64,000 bases of DNA from Myxococcota bacterium (lineage in GTDB: Bacteria > Myxococcota_A > Polyangia > HGW-17). Each line of letters begins with the position of its first letter. Within the stretch, counting starts at the first letter, position 1. The DNA is taken from positions 55,115 to 119,114 of the forward strand of contig JAHJMN010000189.1 in assembly GCA_018821305.1 (NCBI GenBank), in the 5' to 3' direction. Both the position numbers and the translations under genes were made by a program. Positions 4,938 to 62,410 of the stretch are shown piece after piece. The notes beneath the pieces were generated by a model. The model ran no database searches. It saw nothing but the letters and a program-made list of their open reading frames with translations, and was not told the DNA's origin.

Positions 4938-4968
4938 AGTATATTTTTTTAACAACAACCTATTTCAC

Positions 4969-8406: not shown

Positions 8407-8407
8407 T

Positions 8408-13746: not shown

Positions 13747-13759
13747 AATAGCTTTTTAT

Positions 13760-37364: not shown

Positions 37365-37433
37365 TTAATGTCCTGTAATTCGACATTTTCAAGTTAATGA
37401 CGAATTTGTACACAGGACATTAAGAATGAAGGC
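37362..37433. mobile_element. MITE-like intergenic repeat, minimal copy
   Basis: tagttaatgtcctgtaattcgacattttcaagttaatgacgaatttgtacacaggacattaagaatgaagg. A further terminal-repeat-like fragment (ctattaatgtcctggaaat) spans the start codon of the next gene. Confidence 0.6.
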
Positions 37434-41071: not shown

Positions 41072-41356
41072 CTTCGTGAAGCGAATTAGTTACTGTCCTG
41101 AAATACCGTTTTTCAAATTTTTTGCCGATTTTTTGCTCAGGACTCTCACTGTTTTCGATGAAAACAATTGTCGTCTTTGACGATTTCCTTCGGAAATCCG
41201 TTTTAGACAGTAACCGCAAGGTGCTTACGCTTCCGCGCTTCGCTGCGCGAGAGCGCTATAGTTGAATTTATTACTAGTGGCCTGTTAGGATTTTTAATAA
41301 AATCCTTCGCGAAGCGAATTACAGGACACGAACGAATTACAGGATACAAACTATTT
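41072..41356 (-). mobile_element. MITE-like intergenic repeat, longest copy (modules A, B, D, C); reverse complement of the 44.3 kb copy with an extra insert of about 50 nt
   Basis: The reverse complement reads ttcgtgtcctgtaattcgcttcgcgaaggattttattaaaaatcctaacaggccact ... ccttgcggttactgtctaaaacggatttccgaaggaaatcgtcaaagacgacaattgttttcatcgaaaacagtgagagtcctgagcaaaaaatcggcaaaaaatttgaaaaacggtatttcaggacagtaactaat. Confidence 0.75.
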
Positions 41357-45865: not shown

Positions 45866-46795
45866 TCAGCGGCCGCGTAAAATTGCACTGAAAAACTCAC
45901 GAAAATTGTAAAGGTGGAAATCTTTTGCCCTGATTGGAATAAAAACAAGGAGAAAAAGATGCATTGCTGTTATGAGAATTGCCTGCCAGCCGTTATCCGA
46001 AAATGGCCTCCCGGGCAATACTGCCGCGACAATTATCTGTGCGATAGTGAACGCTTCTGTAGCAAGAATGAAAATGTAACCGATTCGAATATATCTTATT
46101 AAAAATAAACCACCCAAAACAAGTAAAAACACCGCCGCTGCAGAATTGGGAAGTCCTGAACTCTGAGTCCGGCCAAAATGATAAACGGTAGCTGAGGAAA
46201 AAAACAGCATCAGTGCCTCAAAAAAGAAAACACCGGCGCTGACTCCAGGGCCAATCCAGGTGGGAGCTAATCTTTGGGTTTCCTGACGAAAACTTTCGAC
46301 ACTCACGTTTGCAGTAATTGATTCTATAAGATTTTTAATTGTTTTGCGTATACTTTCGAGGCCTGGATATTTGGAAAAAAAGTAAAATCTCGCCCCTTCA
46401 ACAACTACGGAATCTGAGATGCCAAAATGGATGTGCGTCTCTGACTCGGGAGACAGGATCTTCCACGGAGCCGCTGGTTTTTCCTCTTTTTCATATTTCC
46501 CCAGTTTAAAATAATCAGTTAGAAAAACCCTGAATGCTTCGGGATCCATATCGTCACCGGTCACAAACATAGTTATAAGTTTCTCAGGTTCCATCTCACT
46601 GTTCCCTGAGGACTTTCCATTTATAATGTCAACCCGACGGACTTTCCCAGAGGCTTTACGAATAGAAGCGACTTCCCATTCCACCGGTAAAATAATATTA
46701 CACAATGCCTGGAGATGGCTAGGGGCCATGGGATCAACTCTGAGTTTTTCCATTATCTCCGTTTTATCGAATTTTTCGTCCATCTTAACCTCCAA
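45866..46795 (-). CDS. hypothetical membrane protein
   Basis: 309 aa, soluble N-terminal half and three or four C-terminal TM helices. Overlaps the upstream TPR gene by 11 nt. Confidence 0.45.
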   Translation of the reverse strand: MEVKMDEKFDKTEIMEKLRVDPMAPSHLQALCNIILPVEWEVASIRKASGKVRRVDIINGKSSGNSEMEPEKLITMFVTGDDMDPEAFRVFLTDYFKLGKYEKEEKPAAPWKILSPESETHIHFGISDSVVVEGARFYFFSKYPGLESIRKTIKNLIESITANVSVESFRQETQRLAPTWIGPGVSAGVFFFEALMLFFSSATVYHFGRTQSSGLPNSAAAVFLLVLGGLFLIRYIRIGYIFILATEAFTIAQIIVAAVLPGRPFSDNGWQAILITAMHLFLLVFIPIRAKDFHLYNFREFFSAILRGR

Positions 46796-47909
46796 GGGCT
46801 TTTTTCAGAGCTTTTTCATACCGTGGATCTTTGCCTTTGTATTTCAGTTTTTTAGCTTTATTAAGATCGTCCATGGCTTTCTTATACTGCTTTAGATAAA
46901 AATGTGTCATGCTTCTGGAAAACCAGGCCTTGGCATAATTTTCATTTAATTCTATTGCCTTACTTAGATCAATGAGGGCTTCATTATATTTTTTTAATAA
47001 GTTGCGAGTAATACCCCGCATATAATAACTTGTGGCGGAATTATATTTATTTTTGATACATACGGAAAAGTCCTGCTCAGCTTTTTCAAATTCTTTCTTA
47101 TCAAAAAATATGATACCTCTATTAAAATATGCTTTTATATATTCAGGACTTCGCTTTATTGCATCATCTAAAAGTTCGAGAGCTTCATCAACCTTTCGGG
47201 TTTTCGCGAGCAGTCTTGCAAGATTTGTTTTTGCCTTTACCATTCCAGGATCAATTTTTACAGCAGCCTGATAATCACTGATTGCTTTTTTAAACTTTTT
47301 CATCTTTTCATATAAAAAGCCACGATTATTCAAAGCCTCCTCATAGTTAGGCTTTATTTTTAATGCTTTAGTGTATGAAGCTTCTGCATCTTTTAATTTG
47401 TTCATTTTTTCAAATATAAAACCTTGATAATTCAAAACTTTAATGTTTTTTGAATCTTTTTCCAGCAGCAATCTGGAATCATCAAGAGCCTTGGCGTATT
47501 CCCCAGATTTTTCATAACACAGCATTCGGTTGTACAAAGCCCGCTCGTAATTTGGTTTAAGTTCTAGAGCTTTTGAATAATCGGTAGCGGCTTTCGAATA
47601 ATTCTTACTTTTCTGAAAAACAAGCCCACGATTATAATAATGGGAAGCGTTTTTCGGGTCCTTTTCAATCTTTTTATCAAGCTCCTCCCGGGCTCCTTCA
47701 AGATTGCCGGTATTTATCATCATTCGGACATTACCGGTATTTACTACTTTTTTATCGGTCCCGGTTTGGGGACCATCACTGTCTCTCACTTCTTTCTTTT
47801 CTGCGGGATCGCTTCCATTTTTAGTTGTAGATCCAGGAACAGTCTCAGGTTTTCCCTTACTGCACCCTATAGTGATAATTACGGTGATAATTAAAACTCC
47901 AAATCTCAT
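46785..47909 (-). CDS. TPR-repeat lipoprotein
   Basis: Lipobox IITIGCSKG. About eight canonical TPR units (W/Y-x-x-G...A...Y..AL...P periodicity, for example YYNRGLVFQKSKNYSKAATDYSKALELKPNY). Confidence 0.7.
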   Translation of the reverse strand: MRFGVLIITVIITIGCSKGKPETVPGSTTKNGSDPAEKKEVRDSDGPQTGTDKKVVNTGNVRMMINTGNLEGAREELDKKIEKDPKNASHYYNRGLVFQKSKNYSKAATDYSKALELKPNYERALYNRMLCYEKSGEYAKALDDSRLLLEKDSKNIKVLNYQGFIFEKMNKLKDAEASYTKALKIKPNYEEALNNRGFLYEKMKKFKKAISDYQAAVKIDPGMVKAKTNLARLLAKTRKVDEALELLDDAIKRSPEYIKAYFNRGIIFFDKKEFEKAEQDFSVCIKNKYNSATSYYMRGITRNLLKKYNEALIDLSKAIELNENYAKAWFSRSMTHFYLKQYKKAMDDLNKAKKLKYKGKDPRYEKALKKALGG

Positions 47910-47916: not shown

Positions 47917-48936
47917 TCATGAAAATATCCACCTCAAGTCGACTTCGTCACTGATTGAAATAAGTGCGTTTGCCTTAATTAAGTGGGTAATTATTTTTTT
48001 CCCATCAACAAAAGTACCGTTAGTACTTGCAAGATCAATACACCATAACCCCATTTCATCATGGAGTAAGAGAGCATGAACCCGACTGACATTATTTGTA
48101 AAAGGGAGCTTATGAAGACCAAGTTCACAACGTTCATATCTCCCTATCAGTATTCCACTTGAAAGAACTTTAACACTTAGAGGAATTGAAACATCCACAA
48201 CTCCGGATCGCACTACTAAAAAACCTAAGGCTCTGGGATCCGAAAGATCTATCCTCGTCACATAGGAGGGACCCGTAATCCTTGTTACTCTTGAAACTTC
48301 ACTATGGCTTTCAGTTACCAACTTAAGTCTTTGATTTACTTTTATTTCCGTAGGTTTTCCTTTTTCGTCCATTTCCGTAAAATCTAGGATCCGGTTTTCC
48401 GGCATGGAGTTCCATACTTTTCCGGCATTTTCACCCCATGAAGATCCAGGCTCGATGTAAAACATCATAAACGTATAACGCCCCGCCTGGAAAAAAAGAA
48501 TATTATCGCTCGTCAAACCTCGAACAGTCTTTCCTGTTTCATCATCAAATGCCGTGGGAGTGTTAAGATCAAGTACTTTTACAAAGGGAGAACCCTCTTT
48601 TGTAATACAAACTCGGACAAGAAGGTGGCGCAAACTTAAAAATGGATCTTCTAAAAGACACATCGGACAATTTTCATGTCTTCCAATCACTGCATCATTG
48701 ATTGACTTTGAAATTGTGGGGATGACGAGATATTCCGGTTTAAAACTGATGTTTGTTCCAGCAAATATCAAAAAGGATGGTTTTTCAACAGAGTTTACTT
48801 TTTCCCTCATAAATTCAAAGTGTTTTGTAAAGAAATCAGAGTAGGAAATGCGAGTTCGATTGTAATTGCCCGCAACAACAAACATGGTGCGTTCGTTTAC
48901 TTTTTCACTACTATCATGGGTGTTGTCTCCAGACAA
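47917..48936 (-). CDS. FHA-domain protein
   Basis: C-terminal GRYERCELGLHKLPFTNNVSRVHALLLHDEMGLWCIDLASTNGTFVDGKKI carries the FHA signature G-R...SR.HA...L.D..StNGTfvnG. Confidence 0.7.
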   Translation of the reverse strand: MSGDNTHDSSEKVNERTMFVVAGNYNRTRISYSDFFTKHFEFMREKVNSVEKPSFLIFAGTNISFKPEYLVIPTISKSINDAVIGRHENCPMCLLEDPFLSLRHLLVRVCITKEGSPFVKVLDLNTPTAFDDETGKTVRGLTSDNILFFQAGRYTFMMFYIEPGSSWGENAGKVWNSMPENRILDFTEMDEKGKPTEIKVNQRLKLVTESHSEVSRVTRITGPSYVTRIDLSDPRALGFLVVRSGVVDVSIPLSVKVLSSGILIGRYERCELGLHKLPFTNNVSRVHALLLHDEMGLWCIDLASTNGTFVDGKKIITHLIKANALISISDEVDLRWIFS

Positions 48937-49008: not shown

Positions 49009-50409
49009 TTATTTTTTATACTCTGGATTATTGAGGACTCCGGCGAAAATTATATGACCAGTGAGTGTGTCGCGAATGAAGAATACAAATGGCCTATCGG
49101 CGGTAAAGTGAAAAATTTCTTCCTTGATCGGCATTCCGCCCGCTTTCATCATAATAACTGCTGTTGCGGCGGCGGCTTCTGTGCCCTTTTCATCAACATC
49201 AACCCTGGCCTTGTGAATCACGTCCTGGATCTTCAGATCTTCAAAGGCCATTTTTTTGAACTTTGCCATATCAGAAAATGAAACAGGCATCCCGAGTTTT
49301 ATGAGAACTTTTTTAAGAGAAAATCCTTTTTCAAAACTGAATTTAGGAATAGTCACCGAAGTCTTTCTCGATTTCAATCCTGAAATTGCTTTGTTTAATT
49401 TCTCTCCGTCCATTTTTTGAATAAATTTCAATGGTTCAGACCCCTTTTCCGGGAGAGCAATAACCATGGATAATCTTCTACCGGAATATTCCATCTCAAG
49501 AAAATCACCATCTTTTAAAGAGCCTGATTTGAAATAAGCCGTCTGAGTCATGTACCTGACTTTTGTTTTACCGTCAGGCCCATTAAATTTGCCATCCCAG
49601 GAATTAGTCTTTTTGAATTGACTGAGCCAGTCAGCTTTCATATAAATTGCGTTTACAAGTAAAAGTCTTGTATCTTCGGTAATGTGTTCTTTTTTAACTA
49701 AGTCTTTAATGAGTCTGGATGTTTTATCCTCAACCCATTTATTTATGACTCCAACGGCTTTGCCAGGATCTTTGAAATCAAGTCTCTGTATACTGCTTGA
49801 GAAATAAGTGGCATTGAGTTTCAGAAACGGTTCTCTTAACTTGAAAGAATCACTAACAAAAATACGATTTGCTGCCGTAAGTTTGAACTTTCCTTTTACA
49901 TCAGAATAATCATACATATGATTTACAGCAGCAGAATTCTTTTCGTAATCAGCATCAAAACCCAAAACCTTTTCGAATTCCTTTTTCTCACTACCGCTGG
50001 ACCCATTGTAAGTCATGGCCATGGCCGAGAGAATTGAAGCGGGTGAAAAAAACAAGTTAGTTTTCTTATCTTCAAGCAATTTCAAAACATTAAAGGTGAA
50101 ATTTCTGTTTCCTTTTATCGTAGTGTTCAGAGCATCTTTATCTACTTTGACCTTCACACCTGGCGCTACAACCTCTAAAGGCTTTTCTGTAACAGGTTTC
50201 TCAGGCTTTACAGTCTTTTTCTCAACCACAGTTTTTTTGATTTCTTTTTTCTCCACAGAAGTTTTTTCATTTCCATCTTTTTTCAATGTTTTCTCTTCTC
50301 CCGCCGGTGATTTTGATGGTTTTGAACACGCGAAAACCCCAAATATTATCGCAATTGACAAAAATGTTCTTCCCTTCGACATAGCAACCTCCTTTTTTTC
50401 AAAATTCAA
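49009..50409 (-). CDS. serpin (serine protease inhibitor), secreted lipoprotein with K/E-rich N-terminal extension
   Basis: LVNAIYMKADWLSQF. Inhibitory-type hinge GTEAAAATAVIMM. C-terminal FHFTADRPFVFFIRDTLTGHIIFAGVLNNP. Possible alternative start at MSKGRT (50382) giving signal FLSIAIIFGVFAC. Confidence 0.85.
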   Translation of the reverse strand: MNFEKKEVAMSKGRTFLSIAIIFGVFACSKPSKSPAGEEKTLKKDGNEKTSVEKKEIKKTVVEKKTVKPEKPVTEKPLEVVAPGVKVKVDKDALNTTIKGNRNFTFNVLKLLEDKKTNLFFSPASILSAMAMTYNGSSGSEKKEFEKVLGFDADYEKNSAAVNHMYDYSDVKGKFKLTAANRIFVSDSFKLREPFLKLNATYFSSSIQRLDFKDPGKAVGVINKWVEDKTSRLIKDLVKKEHITEDTRLLLVNAIYMKADWLSQFKKTNSWDGKFNGPDGKTKVRYMTQTAYFKSGSLKDGDFLEMEYSGRRLSMVIALPEKGSEPLKFIQKMDGEKLNKAISGLKSRKTSVTIPKFSFEKGFSLKKVLIKLGMPVSFSDMAKFKKMAFEDLKIQDVIHKARVDVDEKGTEAAAATAVIMMKAGGMPIKEEIFHFTADRPFVFFIRDTLTGHIIFAGVLNNPEYKK

Positions 50410-51220: not shown

Positions 51221-51245
51221 TAATTCGTTATCCTGACAAAGTTAA

Positions 51246-51396
51246 TAGTTCGTGTCCGGAAATTCGCTTCGCGAAGAATTTTATTAAAAATTCTATCCGG
51301 CCACTACCAGTAAATTCAACACCTTGCGGTTACTGTCCTGAGCAAAAAATCGGCGAAAAATTTGATTTTGGTTATTTCAGGACAGTAACTAAATAG
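51246..51396 (+). mobile_element. MITE-like intergenic repeat (modules A, B, C), first of three abutting copies
   Basis: tagttcgtgtccggaaattcgcttcgcgaagaattttattaaaaattctatccggccactaccagtaaattcaacaccttgcggttactgtcctgagcaaaaaatcggcgaaaaatttgattttggttatttcaggacagtaactaaat. Confidence 0.75.
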
Positions 51397-51575
51397 TTCG
51401 TGTCCTGAAATTCAATTTTGGTCAAAATTGAGCATGTTTACGAAAACATGCTATTCAGAACACTATAATAATTTCAAGGTCTTCATTCTTAATGTCCTGT
51501 GCCTTAATTCGGCATAAACTTGAAAAGATCGTATTTCAGGACATTAACTAAATAGTTCGTGTCCTGCAAAGAACC
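51397..51575 (+). mobile_element. MITE-like repeats, second copy (module E: ttcattcttaatgtcctgtg...atcgtatttcaggacattaacta) plus a third truncated terminal repeat
   Basis: agttcgtgtcctgaaattcaa...cttcattcttaatgtcctgtgccttaattcggcataaacttgaaaagatcgtatttcaggacattaactaaatagttcgtgtcctgcaaag. Confidence 0.65.
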
Positions 51576-51628
51576 AAAACGGTCAACAAAGAATAATGTT
51601 CAAAACTAATTTACTTGATTGAAGAAAT

Positions 51629-52036
51629 TTATAAGTCTTGCGGAAAATGCGGATTTACCGAACCGCAACTGAGACACCTTTTTTTATGCATACACAGTAA
51701 CTCATTACACTCCGAACAAGTCCAATGTTGTGCTTCCTTGTCCAAAAAGGCAGCAATTCCGTTTAATTTAATAAAATTCATATTTTCAAAATTGTTCACA
51801 CCATACCGATTAGTATACCGTTTATTAAGATCTTTCAGGCGCCGGCATGGAAAGTCCCTGCAATCATTACAGAAGTAAATATCTCTTCGTTTATCGCAAC
51901 GCACTATTTTGCAAGTTCTGCAATAAAGGAGTGAGCTTTCGTCAAGTCTGTCAATAAAACTGCATCCGGGGCATGTGTTTTTTTTGCGCTGATGACCGCT
52001 ACACAAACTGCAGTTAATACCACATGGAGATATCAT
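51629..52036 (-). CDS. Cys-rich DUF3795-like protein (putative metal-binding)
   Basis: CGINCSLCSGHQRKKNTCPGCSF...CRTCKIVRCDKRRDIYFCNDCRDFPC...CSECNELLCMHKKRCLSCG. The track ORF extends to 52129, overlapping the upstream gene; the internal Met at 52036 avoids the overlap. Confidence 0.5.
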   Translation of the reverse strand: MISPCGINCSLCSGHQRKKNTCPGCSFIDRLDESSLLYCRTCKIVRCDKRRDIYFCNDCRDFPCRRLKDLNKRYTNRYGVNNFENMNFIKLNGIAAFLDKEAQHWTCSECNELLCMHKKRCLSCGSVNPHFPQDL

Positions 52037-52070
52037 TTCTTTAACAATCACAAAATTTGACCTATTTTCT

Positions 52071-52730
52071 TTATGACGCCTTGGCTTTTGGCCATGGGCC
52101 TCTTTCTGTAGCTGGAGATCCATAAACAATTACCCGGGAAGAAACATTTTTTAATACCAGTGATCCGGCTCCGATCATTGATTCCTCCCCAATCTCTTTT
52201 TCCTGAATGATAATTGATCCTGCTCCAAAAAATGAAAGTTGACCTATTTTTACCCCACCACAAACGGTTGCACCAGGGGCTATGTGCACGAAATTACCGA
52301 TGCTACAGTCATGATCTACCGATGCATTAGTATTGATTATAACTCCGTCGCCCACAGAACTTCCGGGACCAATTACTGCTCCAGCACAGATGCAGCAACC
52401 GTTTCCAAGTCGCGCAGAGGGTGAAACCACCGCAGATGGGTGAATCACCGTCATTATAGGAATATTATTAGCCCGGAAAAGCTCGAAAAGTATTTTCCTT
52501 ACCTGCCCATTTCCCACGGCAATTACAGCAGCATCAAAGGGGTAAGGCTTTTTTACTAAAAGTGCTTCAGACCCGAAAAGTGGGCGTCCAAGTACCATCT
52601 TTGATTCATGATTTTCCTCCCGATCCATAAAACCTGCAACGGGTATATTCCTGATCGCAAGAATTTCATGAACTACACGGGCATGCCCGCCTGTGCCATA
52701 TATTACAACACTTGGATTATCCTTAGACAT
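52071..52730 (-). CDS. sugar N-acetyltransferase, NeuD/PglD family (left-handed beta-helix)
   Basis: N-terminal VVIYGTGGHARVVHEIL Rossmann-like start, then hexapeptide repeats (IGNGCCICAGAVIGPGSSVGDGVIINTNASV). Confidence 0.75.
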   Translation of the reverse strand: MSKDNPSVVIYGTGGHARVVHEILAIRNIPVAGFMDREENHESKMVLGRPLFGSEALLVKKPYPFDAAVIAVGNGQVRKILFELFRANNIPIMTVIHPSAVVSPSARLGNGCCICAGAVIGPGSSVGDGVIINTNASVDHDCSIGNFVHIAPGATVCGGVKIGQLSFFGAGSIIIQEKEIGEESMIGAGSLVLKNVSSRVIVYGSPATERGPWPKAKAS

Positions 52731-52750
52731 TATTGACTCCGCGGATTCAG

Positions 52751-52812
52751 TAGTTTGTGTCCTGTGTTAAGATTTGACTTAAACTTCAAAGAGGGTTTAC
52801 AGGACATCAAAA
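52751..52812. repeat. MITE-like minimal repeat
   Basis: tagtttgtgtcctgtgttaagatttgacttaaacttcaaagagggtttacaggacatcaaaaac. Confidence 0.55.
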
Positions 52813-52849
52813 ACTTAGACTACATGAAATTTGAAAACTCACAAGAGCG

Positions 52850-54346
52850 TCATTTGCGTGGGGCAGGCTTCATAATTTTGGGTTTAATTGTGGACTTCAT
52901 TGGAGGCGGCATCTGCTCGATGATCTTTTTTCTAAAAGTGAGTTCAATATCAACATTAGAATCCACTTCAAAATTCTGTGATTGGTTATCATACCCTTCC
53001 CTGTACGCACGAATCAGAACTGCAGTACCCTTGGGAGCACGAATTATAAAGGGAGCTTTCTTTCTTGTTTCAACCTGTTTTCCATTAAAAAATACATCAA
53101 CTTCCACATCGGGACTTCTGGATATAATTGATATTTCTCTCTTTCCATCATCAACTTTCTTTTTGACTTTTTCAACCTCGTACTTAACATCAGTTTCCTG
53201 TGGAATTTCCTGTGGTTGAGAATTGGATTTTGATGCATTGAGATGAGAAACAACTTTTTTCCAGATAAACCAGCCGGCGGTAGCCCCAGCCCCTAAAATT
53301 AGCAGTAGACCCAAAATAAGCCATACTCCGCTGTGATCCGAAGGTTTAGTATAAACTCCACTCTCCTGATTGACATTATAACCCTGCCGGATTTTACGGA
53401 GATCATCATCAAGGTTTTCTTCTTTTCCTATATTGACAATTTCTGCAATCAGATCAGGGCTTACTAAAGCGGCTGCTTCTTTAAGTTCTTCAAAAAAATC
53501 CGTGACCGAATTCTGACGTTTCAGCGGATCTTTCTCAAGGGTGCGATTAATTACTTCACACACTTTTTTCGGTAAGCCTCGTGTAACCTTTTCCAGTTTG
53601 AGGGGAGGCTCGCTCACCTGCTTGAATAAAAGCTCTCGAGGATTTTTTGCATTTATAGGAAATTTGTCGCTTAGCATCTTGAAAATCATGACACCAAGCG
53701 CGTAGATATCGCTGGCGGGGCCAATTTCCTCGACACTACCCGAAGCCTGTTCAGGACTCATATAAAGCGGAGTTCCCATAACCATTCCTCGGGAGGTCGT
53801 ATATTTACTTTTGACATTCCCGCCTAACAGTTTTGCAATACCAAAATCAAGTATCTTGACGTCCAGTTTTCCGTCCTGCTCATCTACAAATATATTGTCC
53901 GGCTTCAAATCCCGATGGATTATGCTGTGATCATGCGCTGACTGCAGTCCGCTTGTGATTCCCTTCATGATTTTGAGAGTCTCTCTCAAACTCATGGGAG
54001 CACGTTTTTTTATCAGTTCTGCGAGTTCAACGCCTTTTAAAAGTTCCATCGTGAAGTAAGCACGACCATCCTCAAGTTCCCCAAAATCATATATCTGTAT
54101 AATATTAGGATGATTAATCAGATTGACCGCACGAGCTTCAGCATTGAAACGCTTGACCATTTCCTCGTCCTGAGAAAGGGAAGGATCAAGAACTTTAATC
54201 GCCACTTCTCGTTCAATACTTGGATGTTTTCCAAGATAAACATCACCGAAAGCGCCGGATCCTATGAGCGAATGGACCCGGTAATTGCCAATAAATTGAC
54301 CAATAAGTTCATCCTGTTCGTCTGAATGTTTTGAATCAGTAGTCAT
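52850..54346 (-). CDS. Hanks-type Ser/Thr protein kinase with TM helix and extracytoplasmic C-terminal domain
   Basis: GSGAFGDVYLGKH (G-loop), AIK (catalytic Lys), HRDLKPDNIF, DFGIAK, SPEQ. TM helix VWLILGLLLILGAGATAGWFIW. Start overlaps the stop of the upstream radical SAM gene. Confidence 0.85.
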   Translation of the reverse strand: MTTDSKHSDEQDELIGQFIGNYRVHSLIGSGAFGDVYLGKHPSIEREVAIKVLDPSLSQDEEMVKRFNAEARAVNLINHPNIIQIYDFGELEDGRAYFTMELLKGVELAELIKKRAPMSLRETLKIMKGITSGLQSAHDHSIIHRDLKPDNIFVDEQDGKLDVKILDFGIAKLLGGNVKSKYTTSRGMVMGTPLYMSPEQASGSVEEIGPASDIYALGVMIFKMLSDKFPINAKNPRELLFKQVSEPPLKLEKVTRGLPKKVCEVINRTLEKDPLKRQNSVTDFFEELKEAAALVSPDLIAEIVNIGKEENLDDDLRKIRQGYNVNQESGVYTKPSDHSGVWLILGLLLILGAGATAGWFIWKKVVSHLNASKSNSQPQEIPQETDVKYEVEKVKKKVDDGKREISIISRSPDVEVDVFFNGKQVETRKKAPFIIRAPKGTAVLIRAYREGYDNQSQNFEVDSNVDIELTFRKKIIEQMPPPMKSTIKPKIMKPAPRK

Positions 54347-56103
54347 CGGGTCCTGTGCCTCCCTGAAGGCCTGACCTTTTTACCATGATTTTTCTCAGGA
54401 ACAAGAAGATATCTCTGCTGGAGTTTTCCTTTTGGAGTTTTCTCCACGAAAACGCTCTCTCCAGTTAAAGGATTTATCCCCGTATGGAACATCACCGATG
54501 AAACCGTAAGGGGAAGAGGAATAAAATCCTGAGCCTGTTCGGAAGTCAGCCCTTCGCCCCGAAGAAAATCCACCGTTTTTTGCATCGCTGCATAATCACT
54601 TCCAGGGTGGGAAGACATTATGTAGGGAACTAGAAACTGTTCCTTCTTTTTATATTTCTTGAATAATTTTAGAAATTTTCTGAACTTCGAATTGGAGGGT
54701 TTATTCATGAGGCGAAGAACATTGTCATCCACGTGTTCCGGAGCAATTTTAAGAATACCGCTCACATGGTTTTGACATAGAATTTCCATATATTTTTCAT
54801 CTTCCATGGCCAGATCATATCTGAGGCCGCTACCTATAAAAACATGCTTTACCTTCGGAATATTCTGGACTGACTGATACAATTTCACCATGTGTGAATG
54901 ATCACAATATAGATGGGAACAGATTTCGGGGGTAAGACAACTCACTTTCCTGCATCCATTCTTTTTACCGTCTATTTTACAGTATAATCCATACATATTT
55001 GCGCTGGGACCACCAAGATCCGTCACAGTACCATGAAAATCGGCGGAATTCGCCAAATCCTTAACTTCCGAAATTATCGATGCGGAAGATCTGGATTGGA
55101 TTGTGCCACCCTGGGTAATATATATACTGCAGAAATTACATCCCCCAAAGCACCCGCGGTGCGTTTGCACACTCCATTTAACCGTTTCCAGAGCTGGAAT
55201 TTTTTCTTTGTAGGAAGGATGGGCTTTTCGAGTAAAAGGCAGACTGTAGATTTTATCAAGAGTTTCTTCAGACTGGGGCAAAGCAGGTTTGTTATGCTTC
55301 AAAAAGCGTTTGTCATGCAATTGCCAGAGGGTTTTTCCCATCCAGGGGTTCTGATTAGCATAAAATAAATTAAAAGCCTTGATAAAATCAGTTTTTGAAT
55401 TGCGGCATTCTTCAAGGGAAGGAAGTACATCCCCAGGACCAGCCTCACTTTCCATAATACAGATTCCGGCCAAATCAGAGCATTCTTTAATTATCAACCG
55501 TTTATCACCACCAAATCTGCGAGCAGCGGCGGCAATTCCGGATAACTGACTTTCGGCATTTCCATACACAAGAATATCAGCTTTAGAATCCGGAAGAACA
55601 CTTCCCCTCACTGAATCGGACCAGTAATCATAGTGCGCTATCCTGCGGCAGGTACTTTCGGTTCCCCCAATTACAACACAGATATCTTTCCACGCACTTT
55701 TAACCAGAGATGTATATGCAATTACTGCCCGATTTGGACGAAGTCCATGTTTTCCTCCGGGAGTATAAGGATCATCGTGACGTAATTTTCCTGCGGCGGT
55801 ATAGTGGTGCAGCATGCTGTCCAAATTTCCGCTGGATACAGCTGCAAAAAGTCCCGGTCTACCCAGGCTTTTTACCGATGAAGTGTTTTTCCAATCTGGT
55901 TGAGCTATTATTCCCACAGTGTAACCCAGACTTTCCAGCCATCGTCCGATCAGTGCGGCACCAAATGATGGGTGGTCAACATAAGCATCACCAGAAATAA
56001 TAATTATATCAAGATATTGCGATTCAGGATTAAAATCGGAAAGATTTCGGATATATCCTGAATGAATCAGATCTTCGGTTGTCATGGGGAGATGTTGCGG
56101 CAT
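54343..56103 (-). CDS. YgiQ-family (UPF0313) radical SAM protein
   Basis: CxxxCxxC radical-SAM cluster motif HRGCFGGCNFCSI. N-terminal B12-binding-like region. Length and architecture typical of YgiQ. Confidence 0.7.
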   Translation of the reverse strand: MPQHLPMTTEDLIHSGYIRNLSDFNPESQYLDIIIISGDAYVDHPSFGAALIGRWLESLGYTVGIIAQPDWKNTSSVKSLGRPGLFAAVSSGNLDSMLHHYTAAGKLRHDDPYTPGGKHGLRPNRAVIAYTSLVKSAWKDICVVIGGTESTCRRIAHYDYWSDSVRGSVLPDSKADILVYGNAESQLSGIAAAARRFGGDKRLIIKECSDLAGICIMESEAGPGDVLPSLEECRNSKTDFIKAFNLFYANQNPWMGKTLWQLHDKRFLKHNKPALPQSEETLDKIYSLPFTRKAHPSYKEKIPALETVKWSVQTHRGCFGGCNFCSIYITQGGTIQSRSSASIISEVKDLANSADFHGTVTDLGGPSANMYGLYCKIDGKKNGCRKVSCLTPEICSHLYCDHSHMVKLYQSVQNIPKVKHVFIGSGLRYDLAMEDEKYMEILCQNHVSGILKIAPEHVDDNVLRLMNKPSNSKFRKFLKLFKKYKKKEQFLVPYIMSSHPGSDYAAMQKTVDFLRGEGLTSEQAQDFIPLPLTVSSVMFHTGINPLTGESVFVEKTPKGKLQQRYLLVPEKNHGKKVRPSGRHRTR

Positions 56104-56111
56104 TTAAAATT

Positions 56112-57242
56112 TTAGAGCTCGCTGGTTTTAACCATACTGAGAAGAATTCCAGGACTGTGAGATCCAAGAAAAATGCTTTCCGTCAGAAAACTTCCGGAAA
56201 CAGTTTTGACTTCAAAGCCACAGGACGTGACAAGAGACTTCAGTTCCCCGAGGGACCAAGCCCTTACAAGGATCTTATGATTTCGCTGTCTTCCGTTCAT
56301 AAAAGCAGTATTTCTTTTAATCTGAACTCTGGATTCGTCATGAATAAAATAACTTTCATCCATAACCATACAGCCGTTTCCTTCCCACCATATTCTTGAC
56401 GGGAGTATGCTCACTGCAAAATCCCGATTTACAGCGTGAATAATAGCACGTCCGCCAAGTTTGAGATTGCGGTTAAGAAGTCGGATTATTTCGTTGTTTT
56501 CTGCATCGGTGAAGTATCCGAATGATCCTCCAATGCAATACAGGGCATCAAATTGAGTCTGAGAGATAAAATCTCTCATGTCTTTTTTAATAAAATTTAC
56601 TGCCGTGTTAAGTTCTTTAGCTACCTGAGATGCCTGCAGAAGGAAAGGAACCGAAGTATCAATCCCGGTAACATCACAACCTTTTGATGCCAGAGCAATA
56701 GCATGACGACCGTCTCCACAGCCAATGTCCAGCACTTTTTTCCCAGTTTCGAGAGCCAACTCTTTCATCAGAAAATCGACTTCCAGCTCCGTTATAACCC
56801 GGGAAGGGGATTTCATCGTCAGAAGATACTCGTCATCAAAAAAATTATCACTCCAACCGGATTCTTTCTTCACGGGCATCGGAGGAGGTTTTTTCTCTCC
56901 CGTTGGAATTGCCGGCGGTTTTGGAGGTGGAGGAGTTGGAGGAGGCTTTGTCTGTTTTTCATCCCCCGACTCTTCTTCAATTTCTTCAATTTCTACTTCT
57001 TCCTCATGGGTAGAAGGTTCATCTTCCTCCACATCTTCCGCATCAATTGCAATCTCTTCTGAAATCTCCCGGGGGGATGATAGCAGATCATCCATAGTTA
57101 CGGGTCTAAGCGAATAGCCCATAAACCCCGTCAGAGAATTGAAAATATGGACATCCCGGCTGTCATCGAGATCCACACCCAGTTTTGACAATTCTTCCTT
57201 ACTATAAAGGTTTTTCTCCATATGCCCGCCCTTTTGCTGCAT
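56112..57242 (-). CDS. class I SAM-dependent methyltransferase with acidic and Pro-rich N-terminal linker
   Basis: Motif I VLDIGCGDGRHAIALASKGCDVTGID. Linker EDVEEDEPSTHEEEVEIEEIEEESGDEKQTKPPPTPPPPKPPAIPTGEKKPPPMP. Confidence 0.7.
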   Translation of the reverse strand: MQQKGGHMEKNLYSKEELSKLGVDLDDSRDVHIFNSLTGFMGYSLRPVTMDDLLSSPREISEEIAIDAEDVEEDEPSTHEEEVEIEEIEEESGDEKQTKPPPTPPPPKPPAIPTGEKKPPPMPVKKESGWSDNFFDDEYLLTMKSPSRVITELEVDFLMKELALETGKKVLDIGCGDGRHAIALASKGCDVTGIDTSVPFLLQASQVAKELNTAVNFIKKDMRDFISQTQFDALYCIGGSFGYFTDAENNEIIRLLNRNLKLGGRAIIHAVNRDFAVSILPSRIWWEGNGCMVMDESYFIHDESRVQIKRNTAFMNGRQRNHKILVRAWSLGELKSLVTSCGFEVKTVSGSFLTESIFLGSHSPGILLSMVKTSEL

Positions 57243-57391
57243 AATAACAAATTAGGTTTTTAAAAACAAAATAAAAAACAGCCGGACACAAACTCTTTGT
57301 AACCTGTGAGAAAAATCAGTTCAATTTATATAGGATGACACAGCTTGTTTCCACCTTACTGCTTCCGGGAATAAAAGGATCGAAACAAGGC

Positions 57392-57455
57392 ATTCATTCT
57401 TAATGTCCTGTGTCCAAATTTGGTGTAAATTTGAAAAGATCGTATTTCATGACTG
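57392..57455. repeat. MITE-like repeat (module E copy)
   Basis: ttcattcttaatgtcctgtgtccaaatttggtgtaaatttgaaaagatcgtatttcatgactg. Confidence 0.55.
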
Positions 57456-57464
57456 AAAAATATA

Positions 57465-58340
57465 CTATCGTTCGATCTGGATCAAGTTACCTAGAGTCTG
57501 GCCCATGGAAAGAGGCATTCCCTCTTCTAGATTTTCAACTAAGTTAATCATATTCTTCTGGAAAACTACTACGACAGTGGAGCCGAGATGAAAAATTCCG
57601 AGTTCATCTCCACGGTTTCGGGCTACGGTCTCGAAATTGTCTGGATTAAAAATCTTCCAGTCCGGTCTTAAGCCATCTCTCAAGGGCAGATAACTCAAGG
57701 ACATGTTCCCGACACCCATCGCCGCTACCATCACCACCGCCATTTTTTGCCCGCTAGCTGTTTCAAGGCATGTAACTATTCGTTCGTTTATACAATAAAG
57801 ATTCGGTACATTAGCAGATGAAAACTTCCCCACGGGATAGTGCTGACCTTCAATGTGACGATAAGATTTTACTACTCCTGAAACAGGAAAATGAACTCGA
57901 TGATAATCATGAGGACTCAAGTAAACCGTAAACCAACCACCTTGAGCAAATTCCCGTGCATATAGCCTGTCGCTTAGAAGTGCCGTTAGAGAATACTCAA
58001 TTCCTTTTGCCTGAATAAGGGTCCCTTCACGTATGGCGCCGAAATTTGCGAGTCTTCCATCCGCCGGTGAAACCACCGCCGCTGGCGATTCATCTATAAT
58101 TCTGGCACCTTCCTTCAGTCGTCTTGTAAAAAGAGCGTCCAAAGTAGGATACTGGTCAATGGTCATTTCAGCTTCCGTTTTTTGCAGGGAAACTACATCA
58201 GAAAAAATCCGGTTCTGCAGTTTTGAGACAAGGGATGGAAGTCGCAACGATGACCATGTTCCAACGGCTCTGGAAAAGGTTTTCTTGGGAAATATATCAA
58301 GTGCTTTCAACTTAAGATCATCTATAAATCTTGTTTTCAT
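57465..58340 (-). CDS. psd: phosphatidylserine decarboxylase proenzyme
   Basis: GGWFTVYLSPHDYHRVHFPVSG and C-terminal self-cleavage motif FHLGSTVVV (LGST). Confidence 0.85.
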   Translation of the reverse strand: MKTRFIDDLKLKALDIFPKKTFSRAVGTWSSLRLPSLVSKLQNRIFSDVVSLQKTEAEMTIDQYPTLDALFTRRLKEGARIIDESPAAVVSPADGRLANFGAIREGTLIQAKGIEYSLTALLSDRLYAREFAQGGWFTVYLSPHDYHRVHFPVSGVVKSYRHIEGQHYPVGKFSSANVPNLYCINERIVTCLETASGQKMAVVMVAAMGVGNMSLSYLPLRDGLRPDWKIFNPDNFETVARNRGDELGIFHLGSTVVVVFQKNMINLVENLEEGMPLSMGQTLGNLIQIER

Positions 58341-58543: not shown

Positions 58544-61069
58544 ATGAAATTGAAATTATTTTCATTTATTTTCTTCATGTCTTTGGGGATTTCCAGTGCT
58601 TTTGGAGTCTGGGAGTTTTCTGAAATGAAACCTTCTTCCGGTTCCTGGGGCAGCAAAGTCATCCTCACAGGCACTGATTTTTCTTCTGAACTTGTAAAAG
58701 TCTATTATAACTCGAAAATTATTACCCCACTTCGAATCACGAAAACATCAATAACTGTAGAAATCCCTGAAAATGCAGTTACAGGCTGGTTTGAAATTGA
58801 ACAGGAAGGTAGAAGACTAAGAGCTCCAAGGCTTTTTACAATTAAAAATGAAACCGTCCTGCGTCAAGTAAACCCACTTTCAGGACCTGCAAACGTCCAC
58901 CTGAAAGCAAATGGTTATTTTTTCACTTCTCAGACCCGGTTTTATCTTGATTACCTGCTTTTAGAATCACGTATCGCCGATGCAAAGACAGCGGTACTGC
59001 ATATTCCAGCAAATGCGAGATCAGGTCAGATTTATTACACAAGCCTCGGGAAAAAAATTCGAAGTCCATTCCGCTACACTGTTTTGCCCCTTCCTGCAGT
59101 ATCTGCAGTTAGGCCGACTCTGGGATGGATAGGTGATACTATTACTATTACCGGCAGGAATTTCTGCAAAGATGTTCGGGTAAAGTCCGGCTCAGTTTTC
59201 TGGGAAATTCTTTCCAAAACTCCGACATTACTCCGACTCAGGCTTACGGAAGGTTCAACAAACGGCCCTGTAGAAATCCACTGCTACGGAAAGATTATCA
59301 GAACCCCGACATTTACCCTTAAACCGCCTGCCGGGTCTCTTGTGAGTGCCACCCCTTCTTTCGGGCCTCCGGGAACATGGGTTACAATCAAGGGAGTTTC
59401 ATTCACACCCAAGGATCGTTTCTGGCTTGGAAGCAGTAAAATAACATCTCAAAAATATGTTGATAAAACGACTTTTAAACTGCTCATACCTGCCGGTGCA
59501 GTTACGGATATATTCCATCATGAATCCTGGGGCACTGTTAATCCAACATCCGTTATGTTTACTGTTGCCTTCGCTCCACAGTTAATGCGAATTTCTCCAC
59601 TTCGCGGCTGGTACGGTGATCGAATTACCATAAAAGGTGATCATTTCTGCAACCATCCTGAGGTCACAATTGGTACTAAATCCGCCGATGGAATTAGAAG
59701 AAGAAGCTCGACGGAAATATCATTCAGAATCCCCAATAGAGCATCATCAGGCAAAATTTCAGTTTCATGCCGCGGGATCAAGGCAATTTCTGCTTCAAAT
59801 CTGCACATTGTTCCGCCCCTTCCTCAGATTGTCGATATTGACCCGCCCAAGGGTCCTCCTGGGACAAAAATCCTCATTCGCGGTCGCCACTTCACACCGG
59901 GAATGATTTTGCTTTACGGTAGAGTTGTACTGAAGCCGGTTTTCATCAACTCAACTTTGATGGAAACTACTATCAATTCAAATAAATCAGCTTCTTTCAC
60001 CATCCTTACTCAGACAAAACAGTTTAAAACAGGAAAATCCTTCAATGTAGAATATGTTAAACCTGATATTTTTGGTTTCTATCCTCATATGGCCTGGCAC
60101 GGAAATACCGTTCATATTTCAGGTAAATCCTTTTGTGCAAAACCAACAGTCACATTAATTGGATCCTCGGGTAGTGAAAAACTCTCTGTACTTAAAGCCA
60201 CTTCCGAATCTATTTCCGTTAGACTTCCTCCTAAAGCTTTTTCCGGAAAATTTGAAGTTTCCTGTCACAACATGAAAGCTGTTTCCGCCAAATCCATTGA
60301 TATTAAAATAGCTCTTCCAGCGGTTTCCGGCATTTCTCCATCGAGCGGCCCCGCCCGAACCTGGATAACTTTAAGTGGAAGCGGATTCAAACGAAATATT
60401 CAGTGGTATCTTGGTAAGACTCTCGTGAGAGCCCGCTTTGTAAGTGATTCTGAAGTTATGCTTAACGCTCCTAATCTTCAGGAAAAATCCCCTGTTTCTT
60501 TCCGGTATGCAGGGCTCACAATCAATACCGGATTCATCTTTACCCCCAGTTATGCCATGCCTGTAATTTCGACTTTCTCCAGAGACATGGGTTGGCATGG
60601 TGATAAACTGACCTTGACAGGTTCCAATTTCTGTAGCGAAGCAAAAGTGATATTTGAAGGTGGAAAGGAAGGCCGCATTTTCAGACGTATCGGCCATTCT
60701 ACCATCGAGACTGCAGTTCCCGTCGGGGCAAAATCCGGAAATATTAAAGTAAAGTGTGGCCGCAGCATCGCAGTTTCCGGTGAATATTTTACCGTTGCAC
60801 CGCCGTATTCCAGAGTTATAAGTGTCAGTAAAAACATCGCTTGCCCCGGCGATATCATTGAAGTAACTGGCATCAATCTCACTCGACAGACCCGGATTTT
60901 CATTGGAGATACACAGGTAATATTCACACTGAAATCCGGTGTAAAAGCAACCATCCGGATTCCTGCAGGAGTGCGGAGTGGGGATCTTAAAGTCCGTTCC
61001 TTTGACCGGACTCTTAACACAGACACTTCAATTATTATCAAAAGCCGATTGTGCAAAAAAGGCCGCTGA
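58544..61069 (+). CDS. secreted protein with about nine tandem IPT/TIG (Ig-like) domains
   Basis: Signal peptide. Recurrent (I/V)T(I/L)xGxxF motifs with about 85-aa periodicity: ILTGTDF, ITITGRNFCKDVRV, VTIKGVSFTPKD, ITIKGDHFCNHPEV, ILIRGRHFTPGM, VHISGKSFCAKPTV, ITLSGSGFKRNI, LTLTGSNFCSEAKV, IEVTGINLTRQT. Confidence 0.7.
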   Translation: MKLKLFSFIFFMSLGISSAFGVWEFSEMKPSSGSWGSKVILTGTDFSSELVKVYYNSKIITPLRITKTSITVEIPENAVTGWFEIEQEGRRLRAPRLFTIKNETVLRQVNPLSGPANVHLKANGYFFTSQTRFYLDYLLLESRIADAKTAVLHIPANARSGQIYYTSLGKKIRSPFRYTVLPLPAVSAVRPTLGWIGDTITITGRNFCKDVRVKSGSVFWEILSKTPTLLRLRLTEGSTNGPVEIHCYGKIIRTPTFTLKPPAGSLVSATPSFGPPGTWVTIKGVSFTPKDRFWLGSSKITSQKYVDKTTFKLLIPAGAVTDIFHHESWGTVNPTSVMFTVAFAPQLMRISPLRGWYGDRITIKGDHFCNHPEVTIGTKSADGIRRRSSTEISFRIPNRASSGKISVSCRGIKAISASNLHIVPPLPQIVDIDPPKGPPGTKILIRGRHFTPGMILLYGRVVLKPVFINSTLMETTINSNKSASFTILTQTKQFKTGKSFNVEYVKPDIFGFYPHMAWHGNTVHISGKSFCAKPTVTLIGSSGSEKLSVLKATSESISVRLPPKAFSGKFEVSCHNMKAVSAKSIDIKIALPAVSGISPSSGPARTWITLSGSGFKRNIQWYLGKTLVRARFVSDSEVMLNAPNLQEKSPVSFRYAGLTINTGFIFTPSYAMPVISTFSRDMGWHGDKLTLTGSNFCSEAKVIFEGGKEGRIFRRIGHSTIETAVPVGAKSGNIKVKCGRSIAVSGEYFTVAPPYSRVISVSKNIACPGDIIEVTGINLTRQTRIFIGDTQVIFTLKSGVKATIRIPAGVRSGDLKVRSFDRTLNTDTSIIIKSRLCKKGR

Positions 61070-61081
61070 AAGGAGACTCAT

Positions 61082-62257
61082 ATGATTTCCATAGTTTTAG
61101 CTTCACTCATTTTCACCGCTCCCGCAAGACTGGTCTGTCCCGAAAGTCCAGCGAAATCCGTTAAAATTGATGGAATCCTTGATGAATGGGACGAAATAAA
61201 TCCCCTGACCCTGGCAAAAATAGATGCGGTAAAGGGTGGGGATCGCATTTCCAGTTCATCGGACCTCAGCGTTTCCATAAAATGCACTACTTCAAAAAAA
61301 GAAGGTATCTATTTTTATATAGAAATAACGGATTCTCGAATCATCCGCAGTAAAAATCCGGGTAAAAATGATGATCACGTAGAACTTGCCCTGGGCAGTA
61401 AAAATGGAAAAATTCTTTTTTATCCTCCCACAGATTCTTACAAAGGGGCCTTTAAAGGCTTACCTTCAAAAGGAAAAGCCAAAATTGTAAAGAAAGAAGG
61501 CGGCTGGGCCGTGGAATTCGGTGTTCCCTTCGGTTACCTTGGAGTCATTGATGGTCTTCCGGAAATGCCATTTGCTTTTGCAGCTTATGACACGGATTCA
61601 TCAGTTGCTGGAAAACCGGAAACTGTCGTTGCCCTTGATGCAAAAGAGCTTCCCAAAATGACCCGCCTGGAATTCGGAGCTGCCCGGGCCATGTACTCTG
61701 CTCTCCTTGAACGCCTCAGTTTATCCGATGCTGATGTTGTCCAGAATCATATCGGGAATTTTTCCGACGGAAAGGGTGTTGAACGAGCAATATGGATTGA
61801 TCGCTGGCTTGTGGTCATGGGCGGAGACATAGGATCCAACTTCGTCTCAACGGGCCTTGGTGTAGCAAAATCCAATGTTAAGCGTTTTCAACTGATCGAT
61901 ATTGACGGCGATGGAGTTACGGAATTTCTCACGGAACTTACATACGGGGATTCTGCAACAGAAAGGAAAGTACTGATAGTATGGAAAGCCTGGCCCAGTG
62001 GACTCAAGAAAATCTTTTCGCACCTGATCGAGTTCAAATCCGGTTCGCATTTCATAAAAAATTCCTACAAAACCGTGAAATCCGGCAAAAGGTATAAAAT
62101 TGTCGTTAAGTTTGACAGTGCTTCGAAATCAATTACAAAAGACAGCTGGAAAGGTGATGTTCCGGATTCCGATACTCTGGACTATATTTTTCCCTGGGCA
62201 AAATCCAAAACTGCAACATTCAGTTTCGCCAATGGTCGCTATTCTGTGGGAAGATAA
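61082..62257 (+). CDS. secreted hypothetical protein with CBM9/DOMON-like N-terminal domain
   Basis: Signal peptide. IDGILDEWDEINPL...DHVELALGS... resembles the I-D-G-x-L-D-E-x-x-W start of CBM9-like or DOMON folds. Weak call. Confidence 0.35.
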   Translation: MISIVLASLIFTAPARLVCPESPAKSVKIDGILDEWDEINPLTLAKIDAVKGGDRISSSSDLSVSIKCTTSKKEGIYFYIEITDSRIIRSKNPGKNDDHVELALGSKNGKILFYPPTDSYKGAFKGLPSKGKAKIVKKEGGWAVEFGVPFGYLGVIDGLPEMPFAFAAYDTDSSVAGKPETVVALDAKELPKMTRLEFGAARAMYSALLERLSLSDADVVQNHIGNFSDGKGVERAIWIDRWLVVMGGDIGSNFVSTGLGVAKSNVKRFQLIDIDGDGVTEFLTELTYGDSATERKVLIVWKAWPSGLKKIFSHLIEFKSGSHFIKNSYKTVKSGKRYKIVVKFDSASKSITKDSWKGDVPDSDTLDYIFPWAKSKTATFSFANGRYSVGR

Positions 62258-62410
62258 AAAATCCACTACGTCTATCTTAGAATTTAATATTCGTCTCAAA
62301 TTTGAATTGTGTAAGAAATGAGGGTAAAACAAGAGTCTGAAAGTGGTATACTGTTTCAAACCGGTTTAAAATCGAACTTTTAATAGTACCGGATAACGAC
62401 TGCGATATAT

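Follow-up and report, generated by a model that had tools for sequence, protein, structure and literature searches.

A 64,000-nucleotide stretch of DNA from an uncultured Myxococcota bacterium (GenBank assembly GCA_018821305.1, contig JAHJMN010000189.1), hereafter called the window, carries on its minus strand a string of closely spaced genes in which the gene for a YgiQ-family (UPF0313) radical S-adenosylmethionine (SAM) protein runs into the gene for a membrane-bound Ser/Thr kinase. An earlier interpretation made from the letters alone (the sequence-only reading) had treated five of these genes as one cluster and had suggested that the kinase regulates the radical SAM enzyme. Here we compare the string with related loci, with protein family models and with a set of unrelated YgiQ loci. 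The genes concerned are as follows, with the two modules to which they are assigned being explained further on.

57465-58340, minus strand: phosphatidylserine decarboxylase (PSD), first gene of module A (Pfam PS_Dcarbxylase, 194 bits)
56112-57242, minus strand: class I SAM methyltransferase (MTase), module A (Methyltransf_25/31/11)
54343-56103, minus strand: YgiQ-family radical SAM protein, 586 aa, first gene of module B
54343-54346, minus strand: ATGA overlap of ygiQ and the kinase gene, read from the sequence
52850-54346, minus strand: Hanks-type Ser/Thr kinase, single-pass membrane protein (Pkinase, 177 bits; motifs, transmembrane helix, ectodomain model)
52071-52730, minus strand: NeuD/PglB/VioB-family (PglD-like) sugar N-acetyltransferase (AcT; TIGR03570, 224 bits)
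51629-52036, minus strand: DUF3795 Cys-rich protein, 135 aa (DUF3795, 33.4 bits)

The open reading frame list and a direct reading of the sequence place all five genes from MTase to DUF3795, the ATGA overlap and the 8-nt gap between MTase and ygiQ exactly where they had been reported. The critical junction reads cccgATGAct, in which the TGA that ends ygiQ (54343-54345) and the ATG that opens the kinase gene (54344-54346) overlap. The remaining spacings are 222 nt between PSD and MTase, 119 nt between kinase and AcT, and 34 nt between AcT and DUF3795, for which the ATG at 52036 (yielding 135 aa) is the realistic start, rather than the TTG at 52129. No minus-strand terminator-like site occurs in any intergenic gap of the string, all such sites found being intragenic, and a promoter scan was uninformative (16 sites found, 15.8 expected). 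The string has a GC content of 42-43% against a window mean of 40%, and is free of compositional anomaly. When the protein families were checked with hidden Markov models (HMMs), every assignment made earlier passed the curated cut-offs of Pfam and NCBIfam.

The conservation of this arrangement was assessed in about six kinase lineages (at least 50% kinase identity) and five MTase lineages. The nearest locus, L001 (YgiQ 92% identical), has the order MTase-YgiQ-kinase-AcT with the same 4-nt overlap, and L002, from the 'Deltaproteobacteria' metagenome-assembled genome (MAG) GCA_016937155.1 (YgiQ 59%), has the order PSD-MTase-YgiQ-kinase-AcT with a 35-nt overlap. At L089 (kinase 53%) and at L091/L092 (two Myxococcota MAGs, kinase 52%), the kinase gene is immediately preceded by ygiQ in the same orientation and followed by AcT, with gaps of 176 nt in L089 and 148 nt in L091 separating ygiQ from the kinase gene. 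A C25 peptidase replaces YgiQ in L084/L085 and L090 (kinase 51%), in which AcT is kept. Finally, L086-L088 (kinase 46%) present an entirely different context, with an FMN reductase upstream and neither YgiQ nor AcT, and the third closest YgiQ locus, L003 (YgiQ 53%), is without the kinase. A scan of metagenome contigs with the kinase yielded two unrelated kinases and nothing more.

The YgiQ-linked lineages are well diverged (kinases 51-68% identical, GC 39-57%), and the window and L002 share only the string PSD-MTase-YgiQ-kinase-AcT, the other ~12 genes of L002 not being found in the 64-kb window. The adjacency of ygiQ and the kinase gene is therefore not unique to the source genome, because YgiQ-kinase-AcT recurs in L001, L002, L089 and L091/L092 with differing flanks. 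Conservation falls into tiers: kinase-AcT is present in all lineages of at least 50% kinase identity (six locus types), YgiQ-kinase in four of the six, and MTase-YgiQ in two only. Thus, the firmest partner of the kinase is AcT, not YgiQ. The tight coupling emphasized by the sequence-only reading holds where the stop/start overlap exists, in the window and L001 (4 nt) and in L002 (35 nt), but does not extend to L089 or L091, where the genes are separated by gaps, nor to any of 80 other YgiQ loci among the matches listed from a scan of genome contigs.

The MTase keeps different company. A PSD gene adjoins the MTase orthologue in five of five lineages (window 56112-58340; L002 7727-9754; L095/96, 8225-10328 in L095; L097/98, 9076-11188 in L097; L099/100, 9069-11209 in L099), so that the constant partner of the MTase is PSD, not YgiQ. 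In MAG GCA_018821745.1, the PSD-MTase pair and the YgiQ-kinase-AcT set reside on separate contigs (JAHJLU010000523.1, L095, and JAHJLU010000494.1, L091, respectively), and at L095 the genes that come after the pair are unrelated ones read from the opposite strand. The synteny of the window with L095 runs through an SLT transglycosylase, a 391-aa protein, a TIG protein, PSD and MTase, and ends exactly at the MTase/YgiQ junction. These observations, together with the restriction of DUF3795 to the window, do not support the earlier treatment of the five genes as a single conserved unit.

The genes beyond PSD offer a further observation on synteny. In window 58544-63998 and L095 2134-7918, the genes for the SLT transglycosylase, the 391-aa protein and a protein of 841 aa bearing five IPT/TIG repeats keep a collinear order with PSD-MTase, from which they diverge in orientation. 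This collinearity indicates that multi-gene synteny without evident functional logic can persist at such divergence.

The MTase itself matches Methyltransf_25 (63.8 bits), Methyltransf_31 (48.4 bits) and Methyltransf_11 (43.9 bits), and belongs to a family of ~15 orthologues of uniform architecture, in which LDxGCxDGRH and the motifs NWSDxFFDD and RIWWEGNGCMVMDE are invariant. Its N-terminus comprises an LFxxxELxxIG motif, an acidic stretch and PPPxP linker repeats, and has no meaningful Pfam family at E values up to 10. The acidic and poly-Pro linker singled out as unusual by the sequence-only reading is real, but it is shared by the whole family and hence is not peculiar to this protein. Matches of the MTase in the PDB and NCBIfam are generic. 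The PSD-MTase pair is a second, cleaner by-product of the analysis; it may mark an undescribed phospholipid head-group modification, specifically a methylation.

Family models place the acetyltransferase firmly, with TIGR03570 (NeuD/PglB/VioB) scoring 223.9 bits against a cut-off of 160.8, PglD_N 45.5 bits and Hexapep 62.1 bits. Its closest solved relatives in a PDB sequence search are PerB (E = 1.8e-37, full length), PglB-ATD, VioB and PglD. No 4-amino-sugar aminotransferase or dehydratase was found among the annotated window flanks or in the related loci. The adjoining DUF3795 protein scores 33.4 bits against a gathering score of 22.6, carries no signal peptide and has no NCBIfam match; its homologues are absent from every related locus examined. 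Of the two downstream genes proposed earlier, both the NeuD/PglD-type acetyltransferase and the DUF3795 protein are thus confirmed by HMM, but only the former is a conserved member of the cluster.

At the place occupied by the unrelated DUF3795 gene in the window, the relatives have two paralogous lipoproteins, here named X and Y, following AcT; neither is found in the 64-kb window. Each is ~403-428 aa in length with a lipobox and 39-40 cysteines (L002 13957-16444; L084 10555-13045; L089 3447-5952; L090 3849-6378). Neither matches a family in Pfam (E up to 10) or NCBIfam, save for a weak MopE-type metal-binding motif, and a 232-aa lipoprotein likewise has no meaningful Pfam family at E up to 10.

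The radical SAM protein scores well as a member of its family. The TIGR03904 model scores 711.1 bits against a cut-off of 462.35, with residues 29-567 aligned to profile positions 15-557 of 558, and both Radical_SAM_N (354 bits) and Radical_SAM (34.9 bits) exceed their cut-offs. A DUF3362 match (25.3 bits, cut-off 27.6) stays below the threshold and reaches no further than positions 1-48 of the 151 in the model; this short form, with a partial DUF3362, is typical of most close homologues. The CFGGCNFC sequence supplies C318, C322 and C325, the CxxxCxxC motif predicted to bind the SAM-binding [4Fe-4S] cluster, which is invariant among 55 YgiQ homologues, and the window protein retains all ~70 invariant residues of the alignment of these 55 sequences. 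Downstream of this motif lies a second invariant Cys triad, C384-x4-C389-x5-C395, present in 55 of the 55 aligned YgiQs (window 54955-55095, residues ~337-383 onward), which suggests that the family may hold an auxiliary Fe-S cluster.

Because the window protein passes the TIGR03904 equivalog cut-off, and because by best hits the YgiQ of L091 is nearer to unrelated YgiQs than to that of the window (64% identical to protein P0013, 52% to the YgiQ of kinase-less L003 and 47% to the window YgiQ), we regard this YgiQ as generic. By the same comparisons, kinase-linked YgiQs appear to be ordinary family members near the identity plateau and not a distinct subfamily. The generic job of YgiQ is probably the modification of a macromolecule, given that its fold relatives include MgmA, RimO and MiaB. 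YgiQ has no solved structure, and the literature searched holds no functional study of it, such that its earlier description as functionally uncharacterized stands. The sole annotation of E. coli ygiQ is superfamily membership, and the gene is co-expressed with translation genes (PMC6412132); UPF0313 is listed as uncharacterized by RadicalSAM.org (PMC9477430). A 'YgiQ' named in another article (PMC8950095) cites a Shewanella P-methylase paper and was set aside, as it carries no information on the YgiQ family. The same literature likewise holds no description of a YgiQ-kinase arrangement, in agreement with what had been claimed before.

As a control, 80 YgiQ loci from other phyla were taken from the matches listed, all at most 47% identical to the window YgiQ; these matches include neither the source genome nor its relatives. 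In none of the 80 listed loci does a kinase gene overlap or abut ygiQ. A kinase occurs within 10 kb in eight of them, all from Planctomycetota, Myxococcota or a 'Deltaproteobacteria' MAG. In two of these eight loci the kinase gene is the next same-strand gene after ygiQ, encoding unrelated giants in kinase-rich phyla: L033 (Pirellulaceae MAG, 1510-9833, 2016 aa) and L051 (Polyangiales MAG, 760-7270, 1284 aa), which are 27-32% identical to the window kinase domain. We judge these two adjacencies to be compatible with chance. YgiQ has no dominant neighbor across the listed loci, the commonest family appearing in six of 80.

Among the listed Bacillota loci (L012-L083), the few recurrent neighbors include RluA-type (6) and RsuA-type (4) pseudouridine synthases and a RimO/MiaB-type methylthiotransferase (5), in loose agreement with the finding that E. 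coli ygiQ is co-expressed with translation genes. A separate arrangement is seen in L003 (JGI 3300038466, 10001-15355), where the YgiQ stop codon overlaps the start codon of a different class I methyltransferase (316 aa). Behind it come a GNAT acetyltransferase and a B12-binding radical SAM protein, giving another, unrelated grouping of radical SAM, methyltransferase and acetyltransferase genes around YgiQ.

The catalytic motifs of the kinase are intact. Pkinase scores 176.8 bits, and the GxGxxG loop (G29-V36), K51, HRDLKPDN (H144-N151), DFG (D167-G169) and GTPxYMSPE (T192-E199) are invariant in 21 orthologues. One hydrophobic 19-mer (residues 343-361, Kyte-Doolittle value 2.17) forms the transmembrane (TM) helix, so that the order is kinase domain, linker, TM helix, Pro-rich spacer, small beta-sandwich ectodomain and basic/Pro tail. 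By this layout, the catalytic domain would be cytoplasmic and the beta-sandwich outside. The part C-terminal to the TM helix measures 135 residues, in keeping with the extracytoplasmic domain of about 130 aa that had been proposed alongside the motifs and the helix, with its orientation inferred; only ~70 of these residues fold, as a seven-strand beta-sandwich (predicted model, core pLDDT >90). A Foldseek search of the ectodomain against the PDB gave no match at E <=0.001, returning only generic transthyretin/Ig-like modules at E >0.008, and no Pfam family, PEGA (PF08308) included, was matched even at E up to 10. The model looks PEGA-like, yet the Pfam PEGA model does not recognize the sequence.

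One further feature of the kinase was noted. A basic, Pro/Met-rich tail of 22-40 residues follows the beta-sandwich only in the four YgiQ-linked kinase lineages (window/P0121, P0122, P0123 and P0124; window 52853-52930, alignment columns 501-558) and is missing from C25-linked and outgroup kinases.

The history of the YgiQ-kinase pair can be read in part from both proteins. Every bootstrap replicate (100%) recovers the kinase ingroup as monophyletic. C25-linked kinases are nested among the YgiQ-linked lineages in 83% and basal in 17%, their exact branch point being unsettled among three options (47%, 36% and 17%). In the C-terminal region of YgiQ, A524, F539 and P569 occur in all four kinase-linked lineages, each of them being rare elsewhere (<5% of 118 other YgiQs); by comparison, trios drawn at random from other YgiQs have on average ~1 such derived column in common. 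Given these three shared derived residues and the monophyly of the kinase ingroup, the YgiQ-kinase adjacency is likely of single origin, having been either inherited from one ancestor with a single loss, or acquired a single time after the C25 lineage had split off.

With middling confidence, we interpret the region as a clade-restricted composite operon in an uncultured Myxococcota-affiliated (formerly 'Deltaproteobacteria') bacterium, which would co-express a generic YgiQ with an envelope-facing kinase/AcT module; this is a claim of co-expression and not of co-function. Two independently conserved modules would be joined, module A consisting of psd and the MTase gene, and module B of ygiQ, the kinase gene and AcT, followed in relatives by the X and Y lipoproteins. 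The operon is called composite because PSD-MTase is constant in five of five lineages, because the two modules sit on separate contigs in GCA_018821745.1, and because synteny breaks at the MTase/YgiQ junction. The module is called envelope-facing because the conserved partners of the kinase are AcT and, in relatives, Cys-rich lipoproteins.

In such an operon, one transcript would run from MTase (or psd) through ygiQ and the kinase gene into AcT and DUF3795. Ribosomes ending ygiQ at UGA would re-initiate at the overlapping AUG, giving a fixed and probably low ratio of kinase to YgiQ. The functional core partner of the kinase would be the AcT/envelope module, plus the Cys-rich lipoproteins in relatives, and the link between YgiQ and the kinase would be primarily one of co-expression, inherited from one ancestral arrangement.

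Several points weigh against this interpretation. Few lineages were sampled, and several contigs end inside or beside ygiQ. Both co-transcription and translational coupling are inferred from spacing only, and the ~150-175-nt gap between ygiQ and the kinase gene in L089 and L091 would allow a separate promoter. The C-terminal basic/Pro tail of the kinase, restricted to YgiQ-linked lineages, is left unexplained. Moreover, the retention of ygiQ directly upstream of the kinase gene in four deeply diverged lineages, overlapping in two, exceeds that of most neighbor pairs at this divergence and could reflect a real functional link.

That link might be direct, as the sequence-only reading would have it. 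The kinase would then respond to a signal from the envelope or the surroundings and act on YgiQ itself, by phosphorylation or within a complex, in a signal-regulated radical SAM modification pathway, and translational coupling would serve to match the stoichiometry of the two proteins. We consider this unlikely, though well short of negligible. It would account for the overlaps in the window/L001 (4 nt) and L002 (35 nt), for the same-strand position of ygiQ immediately upstream of the kinase gene in four diverged lineages, for the three derived residues near the C-terminus common to kinase-linked YgiQs, and for the correlation of the kinase tail with YgiQ linkage. However, common descent alone can explain the shared derived residues, and the tail would lie on the outer side of the membrane, away from YgiQ, a cytoplasmic Fe-S enzyme, which makes contact between the two unlikely. 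The overlap is not kept in L089 or L091. Furthermore, the kinase keeps AcT and the lipoproteins while losing YgiQ in one sub-lineage, and the next kinase clade has neither; the 80 other listed YgiQ loci show no kinase association, and the kinase-linked YgiQs do not constitute a distinct subfamily.

We attach a similarly low probability to the broader proposition that YgiQ, the PEGA-like kinase and the PglD-type AcT form one functional unit, in which the kinase couples an envelope signal to YgiQ, or YgiQ modifies the kinase or its substrate. The interpretation in the sequence-only reading is thus supported in part: an adjacency confined to this genome, which that reading had named as refuting it, is not what the comparison shows, since the pair recurs, but the signal-regulated radical SAM pathway itself is conjectural.

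At the other extreme, the genes could be neighbors by descent only, with no shared transcription logic or function and with the overlap an accident of genome compaction. The block of SLT, 391-aa protein, TIG, PSD and MTase genes kept between the window and L095 demonstrates that blocks of three to five genes can persist, and YgiQ is a generic family member, as this explanation would have it. The genes of the string, however, share one strand, are tightly spaced or overlap in two lineages, and are not separated by any terminator-like site, and in four lineages the breakpoints fall at the edges of the YgiQ-kinase-AcT block and not inside it. Residual synteny is, in our estimation, about as improbable as direct control of YgiQ by the kinase.

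Far less probable is a single biosynthetic cluster in which all five genes serve one product, be it a ribosomally synthesized and post-translationally modified peptide (RiPP), with the DUF3795 protein serving as its precursor or as a carrier, or a glycan or lipid with modifications. The gene content is superficially tailoring-like (radical SAM enzyme, MTase, acetyltransferase and small Cys-rich protein), but the neighborhood comparison largely refutes this explanation because the set is composite, with the MTase going with PSD and DUF3795 occurring in no related locus. In addition, YgiQ is of the widespread TIGR03904 type and not a SPASM/RiPP maturase, the kinase is a membrane Hanks type scoring far under the LanL/LanKC cut-offs, and no aminotransferase or dehydratase was found to feed a PglD-type enzyme. 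An anti-phage defense system joining kinase, methyltransferase and radical SAM enzyme is barely credible and was rejected, because the PADLOC matches (PD-T4-6 and mad6 to the kinase, mad2 to the methyltransferase, all to catalytic domains) are generic, NCBIfam MAD6 scores 163 against a cut-off of 460, YgiQ, AcT and DUF3795 match no PADLOC model, and the block lacks a compositional anomaly and is vertically inherited within one clade.

The interest of the composite operon lies chiefly with YgiQ. Few radical SAM families that lack a known reaction are as large as YgiQ/UPF0313, whose members include a y-ome gene of E. coli. Because there is almost no informative YgiQ gene context across phyla (commonest neighbor in six of the 80 listed loci), its conserved association, on one strand, with genes for a membrane kinase (overlapping in two lineages) and a sugar N-acetyltransferase is one of few contextual leads for this family, and a single functional unit, if true, would provide the first contextual handle on its function. 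The lead is limited to one uncultured clade and probably to one origin, the MTase and DUF3795 are incidental neighbors, and the kinase retains its remaining partners where YgiQ is missing.

The string is accompanied by dispersed repeats, of which three occurrences lie in or beside it:

57386-57453, no strand: REP/MITE-like repeat copy in the 222-nt PSD-MTase gap
52758-52790, no strand: diverged partial repeat copy in the 119-nt kinase-AcT gap
51225-51578, no strand: clustered palindromic units of the repeat beyond the DUF3795 gene, at which the gene string ends

The repeat unit is ~85 nt with a 9-bp inverted repeat (AATGTCCTG/CAGGACATT), as judged from four aligned copies, and a 20-mer from it has 12 matches in the window against 0.02 expected. 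The copy at 57386-57453 is 85% identical to that at 51475-51542 and shares an exact 20-mer with positions 37411 and 51482. Further palindromic intergenic repeats built around GTCCTG/CAGGAC are located at 7375, 8405, 23646, 25114, 37359-37430, 41084, 41319-41356 and 44477. RNA folding of both repeat-bearing gaps of the string is no better than that of shuffled sequences (kinase-AcT gap, z = -1.6). The sequence-only reading had placed miniature inverted-repeat transposable elements (MITEs) in two of the gaps. Dispersed inverted-repeat copies do sit in the PSD-MTase gap and, diverged, in the kinase-AcT gap, but they are best called REP/MITE-like, since the element could equally be a repeat of the repetitive extragenic palindromic (REP) type.

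Beyond these repeats, a bacterial serpin gene occupies 49009-50409 (Serpin, 324 bits), its product having a hydrophobic, lipoprotein-like leader at the N-terminus and a Lys/Glu-rich spacer. The neighboring genes encode a TPR protein (46785-47909) and an FHA-domain protein (47917-48936), the latter being a candidate target of the kinase.

Each component of module B can be set beside better known systems. The window YgiQ has Radical_SAM_N and the CxxxCxxC radical SAM core in the order of the TIGR03904 family, followed by the subthreshold match to the start of DUF3362. It differs from the family in being a short form (586 aa; the E. coli protein is longer) and in the overlap of its gene with a kinase gene, unlike 80 of 80 listed background loci. 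Its structural neighbors MgmA, RimO, MiaB and the B12-dependent methylases CysS and TsrM are only 10-18% identical to it, and it scores far under the cut-offs of the MtaB, RimO and MgmA models of NCBIfam. The second invariant Cys triad inside the core region sets it further apart from MgmA, RimO, MiaB, CysS and TsrM. Similarly, AcT has the PglD_N Rossmann-like N-domain and left-handed beta-helix of PglD, PerB, PglB-ATD and VioB, but it lacks their adjoining aminotransferase or dehydratase genes, and instead stands consistently beside a kinase gene and, in relatives, beside the genes of two Cys-rich lipoproteins.

Receptor-type Hanks kinases such as PknB and Stk1 combine a cytoplasmic kinase domain, one TM helix and an extracytoplasmic sensor, and their genes lie in operons with envelope enzymes. 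The window kinase shares this architecture, as well as envelope-related gene neighbors. Its best NCBIfam match is the PknB_PASTA model, in the kinase domain only (276 against a cut-off of 450); PASTA domains are absent, and a single ~70-residue beta-sandwich is present instead. PEGA domains (PF08308), a feature of membrane kinases of Myxococcota, are carried by more distant and longer homologues of the window kinase (P0141, P0142 and P0149). The motif pattern and seven-strand sandwich of the window ectodomain resemble this transthyretin-like fold class, such that the fold is compatible, albeit with no significant structural match. Whereas PknB and Stk1 are accompanied by penicillin-binding proteins or a phosphatase, no PP2C phosphatase occurs in the flanks examined, and the operon partners here are YgiQ and a sugar N-acetyltransferase. 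In these terms, the arrangement is a Hanks-kinase operon with an unusual upstream partner, ygiQ.

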